The translations under genes and the position numbers were made by a program. DNA of 63,268 nucleotides, counting the filler. It is 5 parts of 5 records of this genome, joined end to end, with 100 filler letters (N's around TTAATTAATTAA, not from the genome) between each part and the next. Parts side by side here need not be neighbours in the genome. Positions count along the whole stretch, not along the records: positions 1 to 13,493 come from SRR31156797_6283; 4 more parts are not named here. The stretch is one strand, 5' to 3'. The notes below the pieces were generated by a model, which searched no databases, was not told where the DNA came from, and saw only the letters and a program-made list of their open reading frames with translations. Below are positions 7,039 through 57,072 of this stretch, in pieces. Each line of letters starts with the position of its first letter. Positions within the stretch are counted from its first letter, which is position 1.

Positions 7039-8424
7039 TTAGATAGAAGCTAACCAATCTTTAAAAGCTTCTACTTGCTCGCTTGTTCTTTTGGTACTTG
7101 TACCACCAAAAGAATCTCTAGCATTCATAGAGTTTCTAAGATCTAAGCACTCTAAAATATCCTCATCGATATCTTTCAAAGTCTCATTTGAAGCTCTAAT
7201 CTCTTCAATATTTAATTCACTTACATCTTTATGTAAAGAATTTGCATGAGCTACCACATCTTTAGTGATATAATATGCCGTTCTAAATGGGATATCTCTT
7301 TTTTGTACTAGATAATCAGCTAGATCTGTAGCAGTTAAATGCCCTACTTTACAAGCCTGCTCCATTCTTTCACTTTGGATAATAAGTGTCTGCATCACTG
7401 AATTTAATATCTCAATACTTATCTCACAATTTACCACAGAATCAAATACACCCTCTTTATCCTCTTGGGTATCTTTATTATAAGCAAGCGGTAAACCTTT
7501 CATCACTGTAAGAAGTCCCATAAGATTTCCATAGGCTCGTCCAGTCTTTCCTCGAAGAAGCTCAGGTACATCAGGGTTTTTCTTTTGTGGCATGATAGAG
7601 CTTGTCGTCGCATACTCATCACTCATCTTTACAAATCCAAACTCATAACTAGACCACAAGATTAGTTCCTCAGAGATTCTACTAATATGCATCATCGTTG
7701 TAGAGATATTGTATAAGATATCTAAAGCAAAGTCACGATTACTACTCGTATCAAGTGCACAAGGTGTCGGAGCAGAAAACCCTAAAAGTTCACTTGTCTT
7801 AAATCTGTCAATTTGATGAGGAGTACCAGCTAGTGCAGCACTTCCAAGTGGAGAATAGTCATTTCTACTTATTGCGTCTTCAAATCGCTCATAATCTCTT
7901 TTAAACATATTAGCATATGCCAACATATGAAATCCAAAATTGATAGGCTGAGCATGTTGTAAGTGTGTCATCCCAGGGATCAAAGTCTCAGTATGCTTAG
8001 AAGCGATATCTACAAAAGTACTTACAAGCTTTTTAAGCTGATCTTTTAGACTGATTGACTTCTCTTTTACATAGAGTGTAAAATCTGTAGCTACCTGATC
8101 ATTACGACTTCTAGCTGTATGAAGTCTTCCACCAGCATCACCAATATATTCCGTAAGCTTACTCTCGATCGCCATATGCACATCTTCATGCTCTATTTTC
8201 CACTCGAACTCACCCGATTCGATCTCACCCTTTATTCGTAAAAGTCCGCTTTCTATCTTTTCTTGATCTTCAATAGAGATGATCCCTTGAAGAGCGAGCA
8301 TCTTAGAGTGGGCAATACTCCCTTGAATATCTTGAGCATATAGCTCTTTATCAAACATCACCGAAGCATTGAACTGATCTAAAAGCTTGGCATTTGTATT
8401 TTTTAAAATCTGATCTTGTGACAT
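7039..8424 (-). CDS. argH: Argininosuccinate lyase
   Basis: [30 protein letters not shown] and [10 protein letters not shown] motifs. Confidence 0.97.
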
Positions 8425-8590
8425 AAAATATCCTATATAAATTGTTGGTGTGATTATAACATGTTAGGGATAAATAGAAAAATGAAAGGAAAATTTTACA
8501 AAAAATATTTTGTGACAGGAATTTTGACACTTTTTTGATAGAATAAATAAAACAGTTTTTATATCTAAAAAACCTAACAAAGGATAGATC

Positions 8591-8806
8591 ATGATAGAGA
8601 TGGTACCTATCAACAGTGAAAATATAAAATCACTTGGATTTGATAAATCAACAAATTATCTTTATATTATATTTGAAGATGATGATATGGAGTATTTATA
8701 TAAAAATGTACAAATGGAAACTTTTATAGAACTGCTTTTTAGTCAATCTAAAAGTCAATATCTAGAAGAAAATATTTTTAATAGATGTGAGAAGATTGCA
8801 GTGTAG
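8591..8806 (+). CDS. KTSC-domain small protein
   Basis: 71 aa with MVPINSENIKSLGFD...LYIIF...YLYKNV...SQSKSQY, the KTSC pattern; AAGGA RBS upstream. Confidence 0.75.
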   Translation: MIEMVPINSENIKSLGFDKSTNYLYIIFEDDDMEYLYKNVQMETFIELLFSQSKSQYLEENIFNRCEKIAV

Positions 8807-8966
8807 TATAGAAAATAAATCAACTAAGTGAGCAAATTATTTGATAAAAAACTGCACATATGTCTTACATTGTTATATCTATATTATTTAAATTAACAAA
8901 ATCATTTATATTTCAAGGATAAAAATCAGAATGAATGTAAAAAAAATTCTGTCCATTTTATATAAG

Positions 8967-9020
8967 TGGTGCGACCGGCGAGATTTGAACTCGCACATCC
9001 GAAGACACTCCCCCCCTCAA
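8967..9020 (-). pseudogene. 3' half of disrupted host tRNA-Leu(GAG) (attR-like end)
   Basis: Minus strand reads TTGAGGG-GGGAG-TGTCTTCGGATGT-GCGAG TTCAAAT CTCGC-CGGTCGC-ACCA: anticodon loop, long variable arm, T arm and CCA, with no D arm upstream. Confidence 0.9.
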
Positions 9021-9029
9021 AACTGTGTT

Positions 9030-9166
9030 TTACATAACTTATTTTTTGAAATTATTTTACAAAACCCTTTATTTAAAGACTTTACAGGAGTTACACCATC
9101 CCTTTGAATACATCAAAAAGGTAATATAAGTTACATAACTTTTTACATAATCTTTTAGTTATGTAA
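9030..9166. repeat. TTACATAACT motif cluster at the island left end (putative integrase arm-type sites)
   Basis: Copies at 9030, 9131 and 9143 (TTACATAATC), plus an inverted copy AGTTATGTAA at 9157. Confidence 0.65.
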
Positions 9167-11374
9167 AAATAGATTCATTTTATCAGATGTTTTCACCTCT
9201 TTATAGCCCATTTGTTTATACCCTTTCATACGCTTTGTAAAGCTAGATCTAAGCATAGGTGTAAGCTCATCTACAAAGTCAATTGCTAAACATTTTTGAC
9301 CACGTCTTCCGATACGTCCTAGATATTGAACTATACGACCAGAGAATGAAATAGGCATGGTTAGAACAATAGTATCTAAATGTGAAAAATCTATTCCTTC
9401 TCCAATATAACTACTTGTAGAGAGAATAACATTGGCAGTCTGTGATTCCTCTAAAGCTTGTCTTTGAATTTTTGTAGGCATACCGCCATGAAGAAGTGTA
9501 GATTTTATATTTTTTGTATCCAATAGATGATATAAAATATTCAAGTGTTCAATCCTATCACTTAGTATCAAAATGTTTCTATCTTTAATCTTTTCAATTT
9601 CAGAAATGATAAGATTATTTCTATCGTAATCCTCAACAAGTTCATTTAGAATTAATGCAAAATCATCTTGTAGTGCTTCAAACTCAGTTTTTATTGTGAT
9701 TAGTTCATGAATTTTTTCAACTTGTTGTTTTTCTTCATAGGCTATATCTCCACACTGCATAAACATAATTGGATGCATTCCATCTTTTCGTTTAGGAGTA
9801 GCACTAAGACCTACTACATATTTACCTCTAAATCTCTTTAATGGCACTTCAAATGAAACAGCTGGAATATGGTGCACTTCATCAATAATAATTTGAGAAT
9901 ACTCTTCAATAAGTTCAGGTCTGTTTTTGAGTGACTGCAGAGTTGCAATATCTATTTTAGATGTTAGCTTTTTCTTTCCTTTACCAAGTTTACCTATCTC
10001 TTTTATATTTATATCAAAATACTCAGATAATCTTTCAGCCCATTGATCAAGTAAAGTGGTTTTATGTATCAAAATAAGTGTATTCACTCTTCTTTTAGCA
10101 ATAATCGCTGAAGCAATAGCTGTTTTTCCAAATCCAGGAGGTGCAATAAGAAGTGAATAATCTTGTTTAACCATTTTATTGAATGCACTTTTTTGCTCAT
10201 CTCTAAGCTCTACAGTAAAGTTTGGTTTATCTATCTTTTTGATGATTCTTTTATCTTCAATAAATAGATTTGCATTATTTTTAGAAAATAGTTGTTTAAT
10301 TTGCCCAATTAATCCTCTTGGTAAGATAATATATCTTTCATTCATATTATACAAAGAGATTATTCTTGGTGTGTTAAAAGTAGACTTTCGAAGGTTTTGT
10401 CGTATAAAAAACTCTGGATTAGCGAATGATGCTAATCTTTGAATAGTATGTAAAAGAGACTTGGATAGTTCAAGTTTTTCTATGTACAAGGCATCAAATA
10501 AAACGGCTTTAGTATTTTGAGGGAATTTAAGTGGTATTTTTCTTTTAATCTCCCATGGCATTAATGACTCTTCATCTGCACCATTTGAAATAATATTTTC
10601 TCTGATAACTATACTTAACTGATATTGTGATAGCTTTTTAGCCTCTTTTAAAACTTTCCACTGATCATTAGATGGCTGCATTGTATCAATATCTATAAAA
10701 ATAGTTTTATTTTCACTTCTTGATCTAAAATGAAGTGGTAGAGCTACAAGATTTCCAAGTGCATCAGGTGCTACAAAATCTTGATTTGGAAACATCCTAT
10801 CATAACTTCCCATATCAATACCATCACTTATATCCATAGCTTTTGTTACAAGTATATCACCCAGTTTTCTTGCATCACTTGCCCTGACTAGGCTTTCAAA
10901 GAAAAACCATATATGAATGCCATTGCCAGATTTTGATATTTCAAATAACGGATTTAAGTGCAATTCATCACAAATCTTTTTAATAGATCTAGCATCATCA
11001 ATAAAACTTTGTTTATCAAGATCAAGTACAAGAAACTTTGCCATTGTTTGGTTTACAACTGCATAGGTTCCAAGTCTTACCTTACCCTCTAAATGCCTTT
11101 GAATAATATCATCACTAACTGGGATATAATCCGTACCTCTAAATGTATAAGCATCTGGTGAATATCCTTTTTTGGTTCCCTCTTTATTAATCCAATATGT
11201 TGCATACACATCTTCTCTACCAACGAATAAAGACTTAAACAAGCCTATCTTTTGAGATTTTGTAAAAGGTGATAGTCTTTGAATAAGCTTTTTGGTTTCA
11301 ATTATCTCATGTTCAATGTTTTGTTTTTGAGATTCTAGGTAGTTTAGTTTATTATAGAGGTCTTGTATTTGCAT
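9155..11374 (-). CDS. TOTE-type archaeo-eukaryotic primase domain fused to an SF2 (ResIII/DEAD-like) helicase
   Basis: N-terminal LFVGREDVYA, LVLDLD, EISKSGNGIHIWFFF, YDRMFPNQD and GNLVALPL motifs; C-terminal APPGFGKT, DEVHH, SAT and QYLGRIGR helicase motifs. Confidence 0.8.
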   Translation of the reverse strand: MQIQDLYNKLNYLESQKQNIEHEIIETKKLIQRLSPFTKSQKIGLFKSLFVGREDVYATYWINKEGTKKGYSPDAYTFRGTDYIPVSDDIIQRHLEGKVRLGTYAVVNQTMAKFLVLDLDKQSFIDDARSIKKICDELHLNPLFEISKSGNGIHIWFFFESLVRASDARKLGDILVTKAMDISDGIDMGSYDRMFPNQDFVAPDALGNLVALPLHFRSRSENKTIFIDIDTMQPSNDQWKVLKEAKKLSQYQLSIVIRENIISNGADEESLMPWEIKRKIPLKFPQNTKAVLFDALYIEKLELSKSLLHTIQRLASFANPEFFIRQNLRKSTFNTPRIISLYNMNERYIILPRGLIGQIKQLFSKNNANLFIEDKRIIKKIDKPNFTVELRDEQKSAFNKMVKQDYSLLIAPPGFGKTAIASAIIAKRRVNTLILIHKTTLLDQWAERLSEYFDINIKEIGKLGKGKKKLTSKIDIATLQSLKNRPELIEEYSQIIIDEVHHIPAVSFEVPLKRFRGKYVVGLSATPKRKDGMHPIMFMQCGDIAYEEKQQVEKIHELITIKTEFEALQDDFALILNELVEDYDRNNLIISEIEKIKDRNILILSDRIEHLNILYHLLDTKNIKSTLLHGGMPTKIQRQALEESQTANVILSTSSYIGEGIDFSHLDTIVLTMPISFSGRIVQYLGRIGRRGQKCLAIDFVDELTPMLRSSFTKRMKGYKQMGYKEVKTSDKMNLFLHN

Positions 11375-11379
11375 GATAT

Positions 11380-12360
11380 TTAAAGACTGTTAATCTCAAT
11401 TTCAAGTTTTTTCAATATTTCAATTATCTCTTCAAACTCTAATTTCTTATCAAATATCATATGCTCCATTGCTTTATAGTCTTTTTTAAGCTCTTGAAGG
11501 CGATACTCTTCTGGAATTAATTTAAAAGTGCCAACTTTAGCAGTATCATAATTAGCCCAATTTACAGGGTAAAACTTCTTTTTAAAATCAACCACTTTTT
11601 CTAAAAGCTGAATTTCTTCAAAAGCATTATCTTTGACATCTGATTTCGCCATAATAGCTAAATCATAGTAGTGTCTTGAATATCTAAGTGGCATAGGTTT
11701 TGACTCATCTCTATGAACCTCTTGATGTAGAATTGTTGCTTTCTCCCAAAATGTTCTGTGTGCTACTATTGCATTAACACTACATTTTGATTTATCAAAA
11801 AGTTGTGGGAAGTATTCTGATGCATAAGAACTTATCTCATAAGTATCTGATGGCAACCAAGCAGCTAAAGGACCGATTTCTAATAAAATTTGTGGTCTTA
11901 GATATTGGTCATCAAAGGCAGCCGGATAATTTATATTGATATTATGTTCATCATCTTCATTTATTTCACAACTACAAAACGGTGCTAATATTTCTGATAT
12001 TACTGGTAATAGAAATTCTTTAATATATGTTTTAGCACTTTCATTGACTGTCTTATTATATTTATCTTGTTTATTTTTACTTCTTTTATCATTTGGATCT
12101 TCTCTTGATACAAGGTTCCAATCAAGTATAAGATCAATATCTTCTGAAAATCTTCCAATAAGATCAAATACTTTAGAAAGTGATGTTCCACCTTTAAACA
12201 TCAAAATATTGCTTAATCTCTCATCGTTAAATATCTTATCTAATGCCCAAACAACCCAAAAGTCTTTTTCAATGATTGCATTAGTAGTATGCATCATTCT
12301 TGCTGTTTCACTAAATAGCTCTTTTCTTTGCTTAGTTGATAAATTAGCTACCTTATCCAT
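11380..12360 (-). CDS. AbiEii/AbiGii (DUF1814) nucleotidyltransferase toxin, type IV TA
   Basis: IEKDFWV, FKGGTSLSK, RFSEDIDL, RTFWEK and SRHYYDL motifs. Confidence 0.9.
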   Translation of the reverse strand: MDKVANLSTKQRKELFSETARMMHTTNAIIEKDFWVVWALDKIFNDERLSNILMFKGGTSLSKVFDLIGRFSEDIDLILDWNLVSREDPNDKRSKNKQDKYNKTVNESAKTYIKEFLLPVISEILAPFCSCEINEDDEHNININYPAAFDDQYLRPQILLEIGPLAAWLPSDTYEISSYASEYFPQLFDKSKCSVNAIVAHRTFWEKATILHQEVHRDESKPMPLRYSRHYYDLAIMAKSDVKDNAFEEIQLLEKVVDFKKKFYPVNWANYDTAKVGTFKLIPEEYRLQELKKDYKAMEHMIFDKKLEFEEIIEILKKLEIEINSL

Positions 12361-12958
12361 TTTTACAAACCTCTTTTATTGTTTCATAAATCCAAACGGT
12401 TGATGTTTTTGTATCTTTTAAAATTTTCTCATACATATTATTGTCAATTTGATCTCTTATTTTTTTAATGACTTTATCATCAATATTTTCTTTGCCTAAT
12501 GTTTTAAGTGCTTGAACAATTAAGGAGCTCTCTTTGTATTTAAAACCTATGTTTTTTAATGCAGATTTTTTAAATTCAATTACACTGCCATCATTGAGTT
12601 TATATTTTTTATTTGGACCATCACTATAATAGATATAAGAAGCTGGAATTTGAGTTGATAAGCCTAATAAGTTTAATGCAGTATCTCCACTCACTTCAAT
12701 TCGCCAATTAAATTTTCTAGCATACGCAAGTGCCACTTGTTCAATATCAGGGCTTAGCTCTTTTTTTAGCAGTTCACTATATTTTGGATAATCATATATT
12801 CCACGAGCCACTCTTCGTATCTTTTTACTTTTAGTTAGATCTGACAACACACTATCGGCTTCTTGTCTTGTAAACTTACCAAGTAAATCACTGGATGAGA
12901 ATGCCCACCCCCTCTTGTGACCAGCTATAAAGTAAAACACCTTTTCATAAAGCTTCAT
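12353..12958 (-). CDS. DUF6088 / AbiEi-like antitoxin and transcriptional regulator
   Basis: N-terminal wHTH-like region, IRRVARGIYDYP and ALNLLGLSTQIP motifs; overlaps the toxin start. Confidence 0.82.
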   Translation of the reverse strand: MKLYEKVFYFIAGHKRGWAFSSSDLLGKFTRQEADSVLSDLTKSKKIRRVARGIYDYPKYSELLKKELSPDIEQVALAYARKFNWRIEVSGDTALNLLGLSTQIPASYIYYSDGPNKKYKLNDGSVIEFKKSALKNIGFKYKESSLIVQALKTLGKENIDDKVIKKIRDQIDNNMYEKILKDTKTSTVWIYETIKEVCKNG

Positions 12959-12981
12959 AAGACCTCTATACTTTTTATTTT

Positions 12982-13009
12982 TCCAGAAAAAAGTATAACG
13001 TTTTCTGGA
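12982..13009 (-). promoter_or_regulatory. Putative AbiE autoregulatory operator overlapping a -10 box
   Basis: Inverted repeat TCCAGAAAA-N10-TTTTCTGGA with minus-strand TATACT (12992-12997) in the spacer, 23 bp upstream of the antitoxin ATG. Confidence 0.6.
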
Positions 13010-13107
13010 TTTATAATTCCTTTTGTAGCATAATAATATATCAAATCATAAGCTCTCTTTAGAAATAAATATAGATAAAACTCTTACTATAATGAGTATT
13101 TATTAAA

Positions 13108-13129
13108 TTACATAACTTTTAACATAACC
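13108..13129. repeat. Tandem TTACATAAC motif at the island right end
   Basis: TTACATAACTTTTAACATAACC is 20/22 identical to 9131-9152 and has the same 12-bp tandem spacing. Confidence 0.7.
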
Positions 13130-13208
13130 ATATTTTTTGAGTTTAACGTGTTAAACGAAAAAGTTTTTGTAAAATATATATAAAGTAAGTATTTAAGGTA
13201 TTTGTAGA

Positions 13209-13292
13209 TGGTGCGCTAGAAAAGATTTGAACTTTCACTCCGTTAAGAACGAGCCCCTCAAGCCCGCGTGTCTACCATTCCACCACTAGCGC
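13209..13292 (-). tRNA. tRNA-Leu(GAG), complete, island-borne
   Basis: GCGCTAG TG GTG GAATGGTAGA CAC G CGGGC TTGAGGG GCTCG TTCTTAACGGAGT GAAAG TTCAAAT CTTTT CTAGCGC A CCA. All four stems pair; long variable arm, A73 and encoded CCA; 84 nt. Confidence 0.93.
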
Positions 13293-13353
13293 ATTTTAGT
13301 TATATTTTATATATTTAAGTAATAATATATTACTCACAGCCTAATTTTTTCGG

Positions 13354-13392
13354 CCCTCAAGATAGCGTGTCTACCAATTCCACCATGGTCGC
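13354..13392 (-). pseudogene. 5' half of disrupted host tRNA-Leu(GAG) (attL-like end)
   Basis: Minus strand GCGACCA TG GTGGAATTGGTAGACAC G CTATC TTGAGGG, then non-tRNA sequence; GCGACC pairs with GGTCGC of the 8967-9020 fragment. Confidence 0.9.
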
Positions 13393-13408
13393 GTAATTGA
13401 AGAGTGAA

Positions 13409-13414
13409 ATTATA
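13409..13414 (-). promoter_or_regulatory. sigma70 -10 box of the host tRNA-Leu promoter
   Basis: Perfect TATAAT on the minus strand 16 nt upstream of the tRNA 5' half, with AT-rich upstream DNA. Confidence 0.7.
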
Positions 13415-13493
13415 GAAAATTTTAGCTGTAGGTTTCATTAAATTAGATAGCACTACTATTTTATGTAGTCTAATCTATTAAAAACTCTTAATT

Positions 13494-13593
13494 NNNNNNN
13501 NNNNNNNNNNNNNNNNNNNNNNNNNNNNNNNNNNNNNTTAATTAATTAANNNNNNNNNNNNNNNNNNNNNNNNNNNNNNNNNNNNNNNNNNNN
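13494..13593. other. Artificial contig spacer
   Basis: N44-TTAATTAATTAA-N44. Confidence 0.99.
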
Positions 13594-34002: not shown

Positions 34003-34102
34003 NNNNNNNNNNNNNNNNNNNNNNNNNNNNNNNNNNNNNNNNNNNNTTAATTAATTAANNNNNNNNNNNNNNNNNNNNNNNNNNNNNNNNNNNNNNNNNN
34101 NN
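34003..34102. other. Artificial contig spacer
   Basis: N run containing TTAATTAATTAA. Confidence 0.99.
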
Positions 34103-45885: not shown

Positions 45886-45985
45886 NNNNNNNNNNNNNNN
45901 NNNNNNNNNNNNNNNNNNNNNNNNNNNNNTTAATTAATTAANNNNNNNNNNNNNNNNNNNNNNNNNNNNNNNNNNNNNNNNNNNN
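45886..45985. other. Artificial contig spacer
   Basis: N run containing TTAATTAATTAA. Confidence 0.99.
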
Positions 45986-56972: not shown

Positions 56973-57072
56973 NNNNNNNNNNNNNNNNNNNNNNNNNNNN
57001 NNNNNNNNNNNNNNNNTTAATTAATTAANNNNNNNNNNNNNNNNNNNNNNNNNNNNNNNNNNNNNNNNNNNN
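56973..57072. other. Artificial contig spacer
   Basis: N run containing TTAATTAATTAA. Confidence 0.99.

Follow-up and report, generated by a model that had tools for sequence, protein, structure and literature searches.

The window analysed here is a stretch of DNA of 63,268 nt, which consists of five contigs joined by N44-TTAATTAATTAA-N44 linkers at positions 13494-13593, 34003-34102, 45886-45985 and 56973-57072. By ARAGORN, a single tRNA gene, a tRNA-Leu(GAG), was found in the whole window, some 200 bp short of where contig 1 (1-13493) ends; the rest of this contig harbours trmD, rplS, zwf, pgl, edd, eda and argH. The GC content of the five contigs ranges from 0.33 to 0.51 and their gene content is mixed, with a T9SS sorting-domain protein encoded in contig 2 and FeFe-hydrogenase maturation and xanthine dehydrogenase-like genes in contigs 3-5. 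The window looks like a mixed bin; therefore, the neighbouring contigs are uninformative on the tRNA locus.

The complete tRNA gene lies in an insert of 4333 bp, which splits a second tRNA-Leu(GAG) gene exactly after its anticodon loop, and the heptamer TTGAGGG is present at both junctions (Table 1). Read along one strand, the locus comprises the 5' half of the split gene, TTGAGGG, a spacer, the complete tRNA gene, three genes, TTGAGGG again and the 3' half. The GC content of the insert is 0.30 vs 0.343 for the flank. The 5' piece consists of the acceptor strand GCGACCA, the D arm, CTATC and the loop TTGAGGG, while in the 3' piece the T stem GCGAG/CTCGC is followed by the acceptor strand CGGTCGC, A and CCA.

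Table 1. Features of the tRNA-Leu(GAG) locus and its insert (positions in the window)
Feature	Position	Strand	Basis
Host tRNA 3' part: 3' anticodon stem, variable arm, T arm, acceptor, CCA	8967-9013	-	
Right 7-bp core TTGAGGG, attR crossover	9014-9020	-	sequence
Right insert end with clustered GTTATGTAA motifs (9030, 9131, 9143, 9158)	9021-9166	-	motif search, L091 comparison
AEP-TOTE-type primase fused to SF2 helicase, 739 aa	9155-11374	-	Pfam PF22548 5.5e-68, ResIII, Helicase_C; PADLOC PrimPol 3.3e-67
AbiEii nucleotidyltransferase toxin, 326 aa	11380-12360	-	Pfam 6.7e-34; PADLOC AbiEii 6e-103
AbiEi-like antitoxin/regulator (DUF6088), 201 aa	12353-12958	-	Pfam 1.9e-34; PADLOC AbiEi 1.8e-61
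GTTATGTTA/GTTATGTAA motif pair, left end of insert, putative arm-type recombinase site	13104-13128	-	repeat D2
Complete island-borne tRNA-Leu(GAG)	13209-13292	-	ARAGORN, Rfam, family alignment; A73 and encoded CCA
AT-rich spacer, 61 nt, crossover to island tRNA	13293-13353	-	sequence
Left 7-bp core TTGAGGG, anticodon loop, attL crossover	13354-13360	-	sequence
Host tRNA-Leu(GAG) 5' part, positions 1-38, ends with anticodon loop	13354-13392	-	sequence, relatives
Promoter-like site ATGAAA-18-TATAAT, candidate host tRNA promoter	13409-13438	-	promoter scan

Six of the seven acceptor pairs match between the split halves, so the halves belong together. An exact copy of the 39-nt 5' piece occurs as a fragment in another genome (G402), and both host pieces are 89-91% like the intact tRNA-Leu(GAG) gene of a Sulfurimonas MAG (L035); judged by sequence, the two pieces are not chance matches. 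The split gene has three pairing defects, namely A.C at 7-66, A.G at 29-41 (CTATC vs GGGAG) and one additional G in the G run after the loop; the anomalies of the 3' piece are one extra G and a G in place of the expected T. The A7.C66 mismatch may be native rather than a product of decay, since the same 5' fragment occurs in G402. A hybrid intact gene is absent from the junction: the host 5' part runs into AT-rich non-tRNA DNA, the attL junction, which continues into this sequence, is non-functional, and the 7-bp core is too short for a tRNA to be rebuilt. The 13,383-nt contig of the source run ends inside the 5' tRNA fragment (window 13354-13493), and several other contigs of this run share only 13354-13393; the contig break is caused by tRNA-Leu sequence that organisms of the sample have in common.

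The tRNA gene inside the insert has the features of an intact class II tRNA. It scored 48.2 bits against Rfam RF00005 (gathering score 29; model positions 1-71), carries the anticodon GAG at positions 34-36 in a 7-nt loop (ARAGORN: Leu (gag), position 34), and has a long variable arm with a variable region of 13 nt and 3 pairs. We aligned it with 32 other tRNA-Leu(GAG) genes, taken from the best matches in 401 sampled Campylobacterales genomes, and imposed the cloverleaf on the resulting alignment of 33 distinct genes (755 pair cells). The results showed that all 23 stem pairs of the island tRNA are canonical and that it possesses all 38 columns which are invariant in the family. Throughout the family, standard pairs occupy 99.7% of the 755 cells and double-sided changes are found in 16 of the 23 pairs; none of 500 shuffles reached the pairing and double-change values of the family, and pairing fell to 34-61% when the partners were slid along the alignment. 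The compensatory divergence that had been noticed in the stems of the inner tRNA is thus supported across the 33 genes.

The possibility that the inner tRNA is a decaying pseudogene, CUU and CUC being read by another tRNA, would fit its weak, AT-rich T stem, which is composed of a closing G.U pair, three A-U pairs and one G-C pair, and also the single-sequence fold, which was no better than that of shuffled sequences (z = -0.40) and whose minimum free energy structure is not a cloverleaf. However, such a fold is uninformative for a tRNA, and the fully canonical stems, the complete set of family-invariant positions and an Rfam score above the threshold all speak against decay, as does the contrast with the truly disrupted halves and their three defects. 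We consider a pseudogene highly improbable. In the host genes of contig 1, CUU and CUC together make up 133 of the 274 Leu codons, which implies a strong need for a tRNA that decodes them.

Comparison of the island tRNA with the split tRNA revealed 58 identical positions out of 85 aligned. The anticodon loop TTGAGGG is the same in both, the D arm differs by one extra T, and the stem sequences quoted for the two tRNAs in the original prediction are all correct. Its statement that the remaining arms differ yet stay paired holds for the island tRNA, but not for the split halves with their defects. The nearest relative of the island tRNA among the 32 other genes is identical at 72 of 84 positions, and in two loci (L033 and L048) different host fragments are joined to one and the same island sequence, which agrees with the foreign origin proposed earlier for the inner tRNA. 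In 50,697 phage records, no close match to the 84-nt tRNA was obtained (best 76-79%). The best match in the plasmid collection was only 75.6%, and with these values a phage or plasmid origin was rejected. The CGGGC/GCTCG anticodon arm of the island tRNA is the ordinary native arm in many of the sampled Campylobacterales; therefore, a different lineage within this order looks like the source of the tRNA. Taken at the level of sequence, the view that it is a foreign, element-borne replacement with compensated stem divergence, functional by design, is well supported.

It had further been suggested that, owing to the altered stems, the tRNA of the element may not be accepted by the integrase as another attB. 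In the anticodon-loop class of tyrosine integrases, binding takes place at the stem arms on either side of the 7-bp overlap, and among the 13 cases of this layout described below the 5' anticodon stem of the island tRNA differs from that of the host fragment in 11, by 3-4 of the 5 bases in 10 of them. However, the fragment and the island tRNA share both the 5' stem and the loop in two of the 13 (G350 and G002), the stem in G389 differs by only one base, and at the array junctions of two further loci (L091 and L154) the core is in use although no tRNA stem surrounds it. Moreover, native stems vary widely and a foreign tRNA would differ anyway: since the CGGGC/GCTCG arm is natively common, the stem difference is what foreign origin alone gives. 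An adaptation of the stems against reuse as attB is thus unlikely.

The layout of a host 5' fragment, a short spacer and a complete tRNA-Leu(GAG) in the same orientation was found in at least 11 of the 401 sampled Campylobacterales genomes. A pattern search for two D-stem-to-loop copies 25-55 nt apart detected 8 genomes, to which G004, G364 and G350, with the same layout and larger gaps, were added; G002 is a further case from outside the 401-genome sample. In all 13 cases the full tRNA is co-oriented with the fragment and begins 10-61 nt behind it (10-44 nt in the 12 other genomes). Most of the 401 genomes gave a single pattern match. For nine of the genomes with an island, the fragment and the island tRNA are the only matches of the pattern, and these nine probably have no other copy of tRNA-Leu(GAG). 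Among 28 loci with a tRNA regarded as native, 27 have no fragment upstream and one (L036) has; a further locus (L053) was left out of this count because its coordinates were wrong. G004 and G364 have an identical spacer and tRNA behind host fragments that differ, which pins the island boundary to the last position of the loop.

Where both ends were found, the islands are 14.0 kb (G014), 9.8 kb (G369), 16.1 kb (G405), 29.9 kb (G364) and 23.3 kb (G004) in length. In G014, G369 and G405, an intact tyrosine integrase gene (387-405 aa) stops 64-70 nt short of the 3' fragment. In the G004 integrase (L040 8196-9350), an in-frame stop separates an N-terminal piece (8196-8666) from a catalytic piece (8670-9350), and judging from this sequence the G004 island is probably immobile too. 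The cargo of the related islands is mostly of the defence type (restriction-modification, AIPR, NACHT, Fic, AbiE), and the layout recurs independently of the cargo. In the window, no integrase was detected within the 4.3-kb insert by ORF and Pfam analysis, nor among the 39 window ORFs of at least 110 aa by NCBIfam (E<=1e-10).

The lack of an integrase in the insert, together with the wide native occurrence of the anticodon arm, might favour a different account, in which the inner tRNA would be the organism's own gene, not brought in by any element, and an older, unrelated duplication would have left the two half-tRNAs behind. However, the complete gene lies between two halves that belong together, in the company of three defence-type genes of lower GC content; the same spacer and tRNA stand behind different host fragments in G004 and G364; and the intact relatives carry an integrase at their far end. 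We regard this account as very improbable.

Spacers of 10 nt, as in G097 and G083, leave no room for a promoter, so a promoter of the tRNA's own in the spacer is excluded for these two genomes. A scan of the region 8900-13493 of the window placed the site ATGAAA-18-TATAAT, located 17 nt upstream of the host 5' fragment, at the top with 10 of 12 matching positions, tied with two sites elsewhere; the number of promoter-like sites in this region showed no excess (25 vs 25.4 in shuffles). The notion that this site is the host tRNA promoter now driving the island tRNA is a weak lead.

The three protein-coding genes of the insert consist of an AbiE pair and a primase-helicase gene. The adjacent abiEi and abiEii genes, whose reading frames overlap at 12353-12360, constitute an AbiE system, and they lie about 250 bp from the island tRNA. 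In the strong profile matches and the overlapping frames the pair is like the AbiE type IV toxin-antitoxin/abortive infection systems, but differs in that a primase-helicase gene directly follows; in relatives, Zeta, ParE or AAA_14 genes precede that gene, and these varied partners suggest, from gene order, a larger cassette. Matching of the insert to PHROGs gave helicase/primase matches and one family of unknown function only as regards phage genes. With the TOTE conflict system (2022, cited in PMC12458937), as far as it is outlined there, the insert shares the primase domain (the Pfam AEP-TOTE match in Table 1), but genes for TPR, OB/cold-shock and TBP proteins are absent from the insert, where the other two genes are AbiEi and AbiEii; the effector-type domain alone is thus shared.

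The primase-helicase has some 30 homologues, 64-78% identical to it, among Campylobacterota genomes, and 60-odd come from metagenomes. We rejected it as a constant neighbour of tRNA genes, since, of the 32 genome loci with a homologue, 28 lack a tRNA, while tRNA-Asn occurs at three and Met/Gln tRNAs at the remaining one; as the gene is not usually near a tRNA, it is considered cargo. A toxin-like gene of variable kind (AbiEi/AbiEii, AAA_14/DUF4143, Zeta toxin or ParE) is located almost always directly before the AEP-helicase gene (window 9155-12958; L001, L003, L004, L009-L014, L020, L022 and L029), and the surroundings of the AEP-helicase loci are rich in defence genes. From their arrangement, the toxin-like gene and the AEP-helicase look like a modular two-part cassette.

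MenT toxins, which are relatives of AbiEii, modify tRNA 3' ends. Given this and the 250 bp between the tRNA and abiEi-abiEii, the tRNA might be carried not as a gene replacement but as a means of evading or buffering toxins or nucleases that act on tRNAs, for instance as partner or decoy of AbiEii, and a changed sensitivity to such enzymes had indeed been put forward for it. Counter-defence has also been raised as a possible added role of phage tRNAs of this kind in the available text of PMC10865867. However, the acceptor end of the island tRNA is the standard A73-CCA, and nucleases that cut the loop are not escaped, because the island anticodon loop is identical to that of the host. Furthermore, one locus (L091) has the same three genes, 91% identical over 4.1 kb, without the tRNA, and such tRNAs are also found in islands with unrelated cargo, namely restriction-modification, NACHT or AIPR genes. 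A role in evading toxins is therefore very unlikely, and the proposed change in sensitivity was not upheld.

The L091 locus also bears on the ends of the insert. Its AbiE/primase-helicase cassette adjoins a host 3' fragment different from that in the window (acceptor CGATCGC), and a Gabija-like cassette, comprising an OLD-TOPRIM ATPase and a UvrD helicase, lies in tandem before it (L091 1-8420). Each L091 cassette is closed by a repeat of about 140-155 bp ending in TTGAGGG, and the right end of the insert in the window (9021-9166) is about 83-85% like the two repeat units. No tRNA is present at the internal junction of L091, nor at L154 3930-4180, which is a condensed version of it. In run X3, one contig links 9143-9014 to 13035-12133, with 341 other letters in between. 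We rejected a circular or plasmid form as its explanation: L091 shows the same join inside a tandem array, as an internal array junction, so a circle is not shown. Cassettes 90-99% like that of the window were found in contigs of biofilm, landfill and soil metagenome runs, and one soil contig continues beyond the core into sequence unlike the flank in the window.

The motif GTTATGTAA is concentrated at the two ends of the insert. Four of its six exact matches in the window lie there (three in 9030-9166 and one at 13108), as do 7 of the 25 matches with at most one mismatch (9030-9166 and 13104-13128), including an inverted pair directly after the helicase stop codon. The left-end motifs lie about 85 nt beyond the island tRNA, while the right-end cluster adjoins the core. 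These clusters may be arm-type recombinase sites or an operator, as far as their sequence and placement indicate.

Mobilisable islands without an integrase, such as the CIMEs of Streptococcus and the MGIs of Vibrio, share att sites with a helper element. The window cassette resembles them in being a short element with attL- and attR-like flanks and no recombinase, and in the tandem arrangement, seen at L091, with another cassette that ends in the same repeat. It differs in that no helper or cognate integrase was found for this cassette type in the 61 genomes of the G402 family or in viral_contigs: the right-end DNA (9014-9166), used as a probe for a helper, matched none of the 61 genomes, and a 25-nt right-end/core string gave no match in viral_contigs.

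The split gene, the repeats, the intact cloverleaf, the recurrence of the layout and the integrases of the relatives are directly observed, and we give a probability of roughly 80% to the reading that a working tRNA-Leu(GAG) is carried by a small integrative element, which entered the host tRNA-Leu(GAG) gene by site-specific recombination at TTGAGGG. A tyrosine integrase would recombine the 7-bp core of the element with the anticodon loop of the host gene, which has the same sequence; some integrase subfamilies reportedly integrate at the anticodon loop. As the attachment site of the element lacks the 3' half of a tRNA, the host gene would stay broken, and the element would supply a whole tRNA with the same anticodon, in the same direction, 61 nt downstream of the crossover. 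Transcription of the island tRNA would start from the host promoter and proceed through the dead 5' fragment, and the tRNA would be cut from this transcript by the normal processing enzymes and charged; that transcription comes from upstream in the integrated state is argued by the 10-nt spacers, which have no room for a promoter. The stems of the island tRNA would differ from those of the host because it came from another Campylobacterales lineage, and would stay paired because it must function.

Within this reading of a tRNA-carrying element, the element in the window would be a minimal, integrase-less cassette of 4.3 kb containing the AbiE toxin-antitoxin and the primase-helicase, which may have been moved in trans by a related integrase or may have lost an integrase of its own. 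The host halves appear to have decayed since integration; thus, CUU and CUC are now probably read in this cell by the island tRNA, which is presumably essential. Cassettes moved in trans could be stacked in tandem, in which case the tRNA would be needed only once. We offer, tentatively and with less than even confidence, an extension of this reading in which the tRNA-Leu(GAG) gene of Campylobacterota is an accretion site for integrase-less defence cassettes sharing the 7-bp core and the GTTATGTAA arm sites. The replacement tRNA would be required only in the cassette that adjoins the host 5' fragment, the first of the row; it would be driven by the captured promoter and could not be lost after decay of the host halves. 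Cassettes without a tRNA, exemplified by the internal junctions of L091 and L154, would stack only behind this first one, and the island tRNA would in time become resident, leaving scars like that in G350. If this extension is true, the tRNA gene itself undergoes xenologous turnover driven by the elements.

The closest parallel is the tRNA-dependent lysogeny of actinobacteriophages (Guerrero-Bustamante and Hatfull, mBio 2024, PMC10865867). According to the text available, it has been shown experimentally for mycobacteriophage Fionnbharth and others that a phage tRNA of the same isotype is needed for viable integration, and the authors expected a wider occurrence, citing prophage Lj965 of Lactobacillus johnsonii. 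[quoted passage not shown] Unlike the phages as portrayed in that text, the elements described here are not phages, have no structural genes and carry defence systems as cargo; the tRNA lies 10-61 nt behind the crossover in the same orientation, whereas that of Fionnbharth lies elsewhere and has its own demonstrated promoter; and the window copy is without an integrase, the hosts are Campylobacterota and the system is known here from sequence alone. The logic of disruption and complementation thus appears, from gene arrangement, to operate here in non-phage defence islands, with the tRNA directly behind the crossover. A literature search of partial coverage returned no account of such islands in Campylobacterota.

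Classical islands and prophages that target tRNA genes, as far as the Islander model is set out in PMC4383910, have in common with the present islands a tyrosine integrase (in the relatives here), a tRNA gene as target, a displaced fragment at one end and crossover in the anticodon loop. In those islands, attP carries the 3' part of the tRNA and the target is regenerated as a hybrid, whereas here the junction is dead and a whole gene is supplied. As the defining hybrid junction is absent, the insert is not a classical tRNA-restoring island.

If the reading of a tRNA-carrying element holds, the strategy of breaking a tRNA gene and bringing one's own extends from temperate actinophages to non-phage defence islands in a different phylum, with a distinct layout in which the replacement gene lies directly behind the crossover and can use the host promoter. 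Programs that depend on an intact tRNA together with a 3' fragment to find islands will overlook such islands or put them in the wrong place, and fragment-based finders would see an extra 5' fragment at them. A tRNA gained by horizontal transfer can end up, unnoticed, as the sole tRNA-Leu(GAG) in a genome, and this turnover matters for tRNA phylogeny and for calling genes dispensable. The tRNA would also make a small defence cassette hard to lose, which is a possible route to the fixing of defence genes.

Some further loci were observed during the comparison of the genomes. L079 (G350:C62) and L041 have ADP-heptose pathway genes directly after the host 5' fragment and the imported tRNA-Leu(GAG), and no island is left; by its sequence, the G350 locus is best described as a scar, indicating that an island tRNA can become a resident gene. 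The host fragment and the island tRNA agree at loop position 38 (G or T) in all 13 cases, including five T-type hosts, which carry two types of island. This agreement may reflect relatedness of donor and recipient, or a link between the tRNA and the core carried in attP. At G323:C1 (about 471880-520081), a fragment-like match was accompanied by a second tRNA-like match (1 mismatch) 93 nt away and by a match like a 3' half 48 kb off, and from this arrangement the locus may be a larger island of the same kind.
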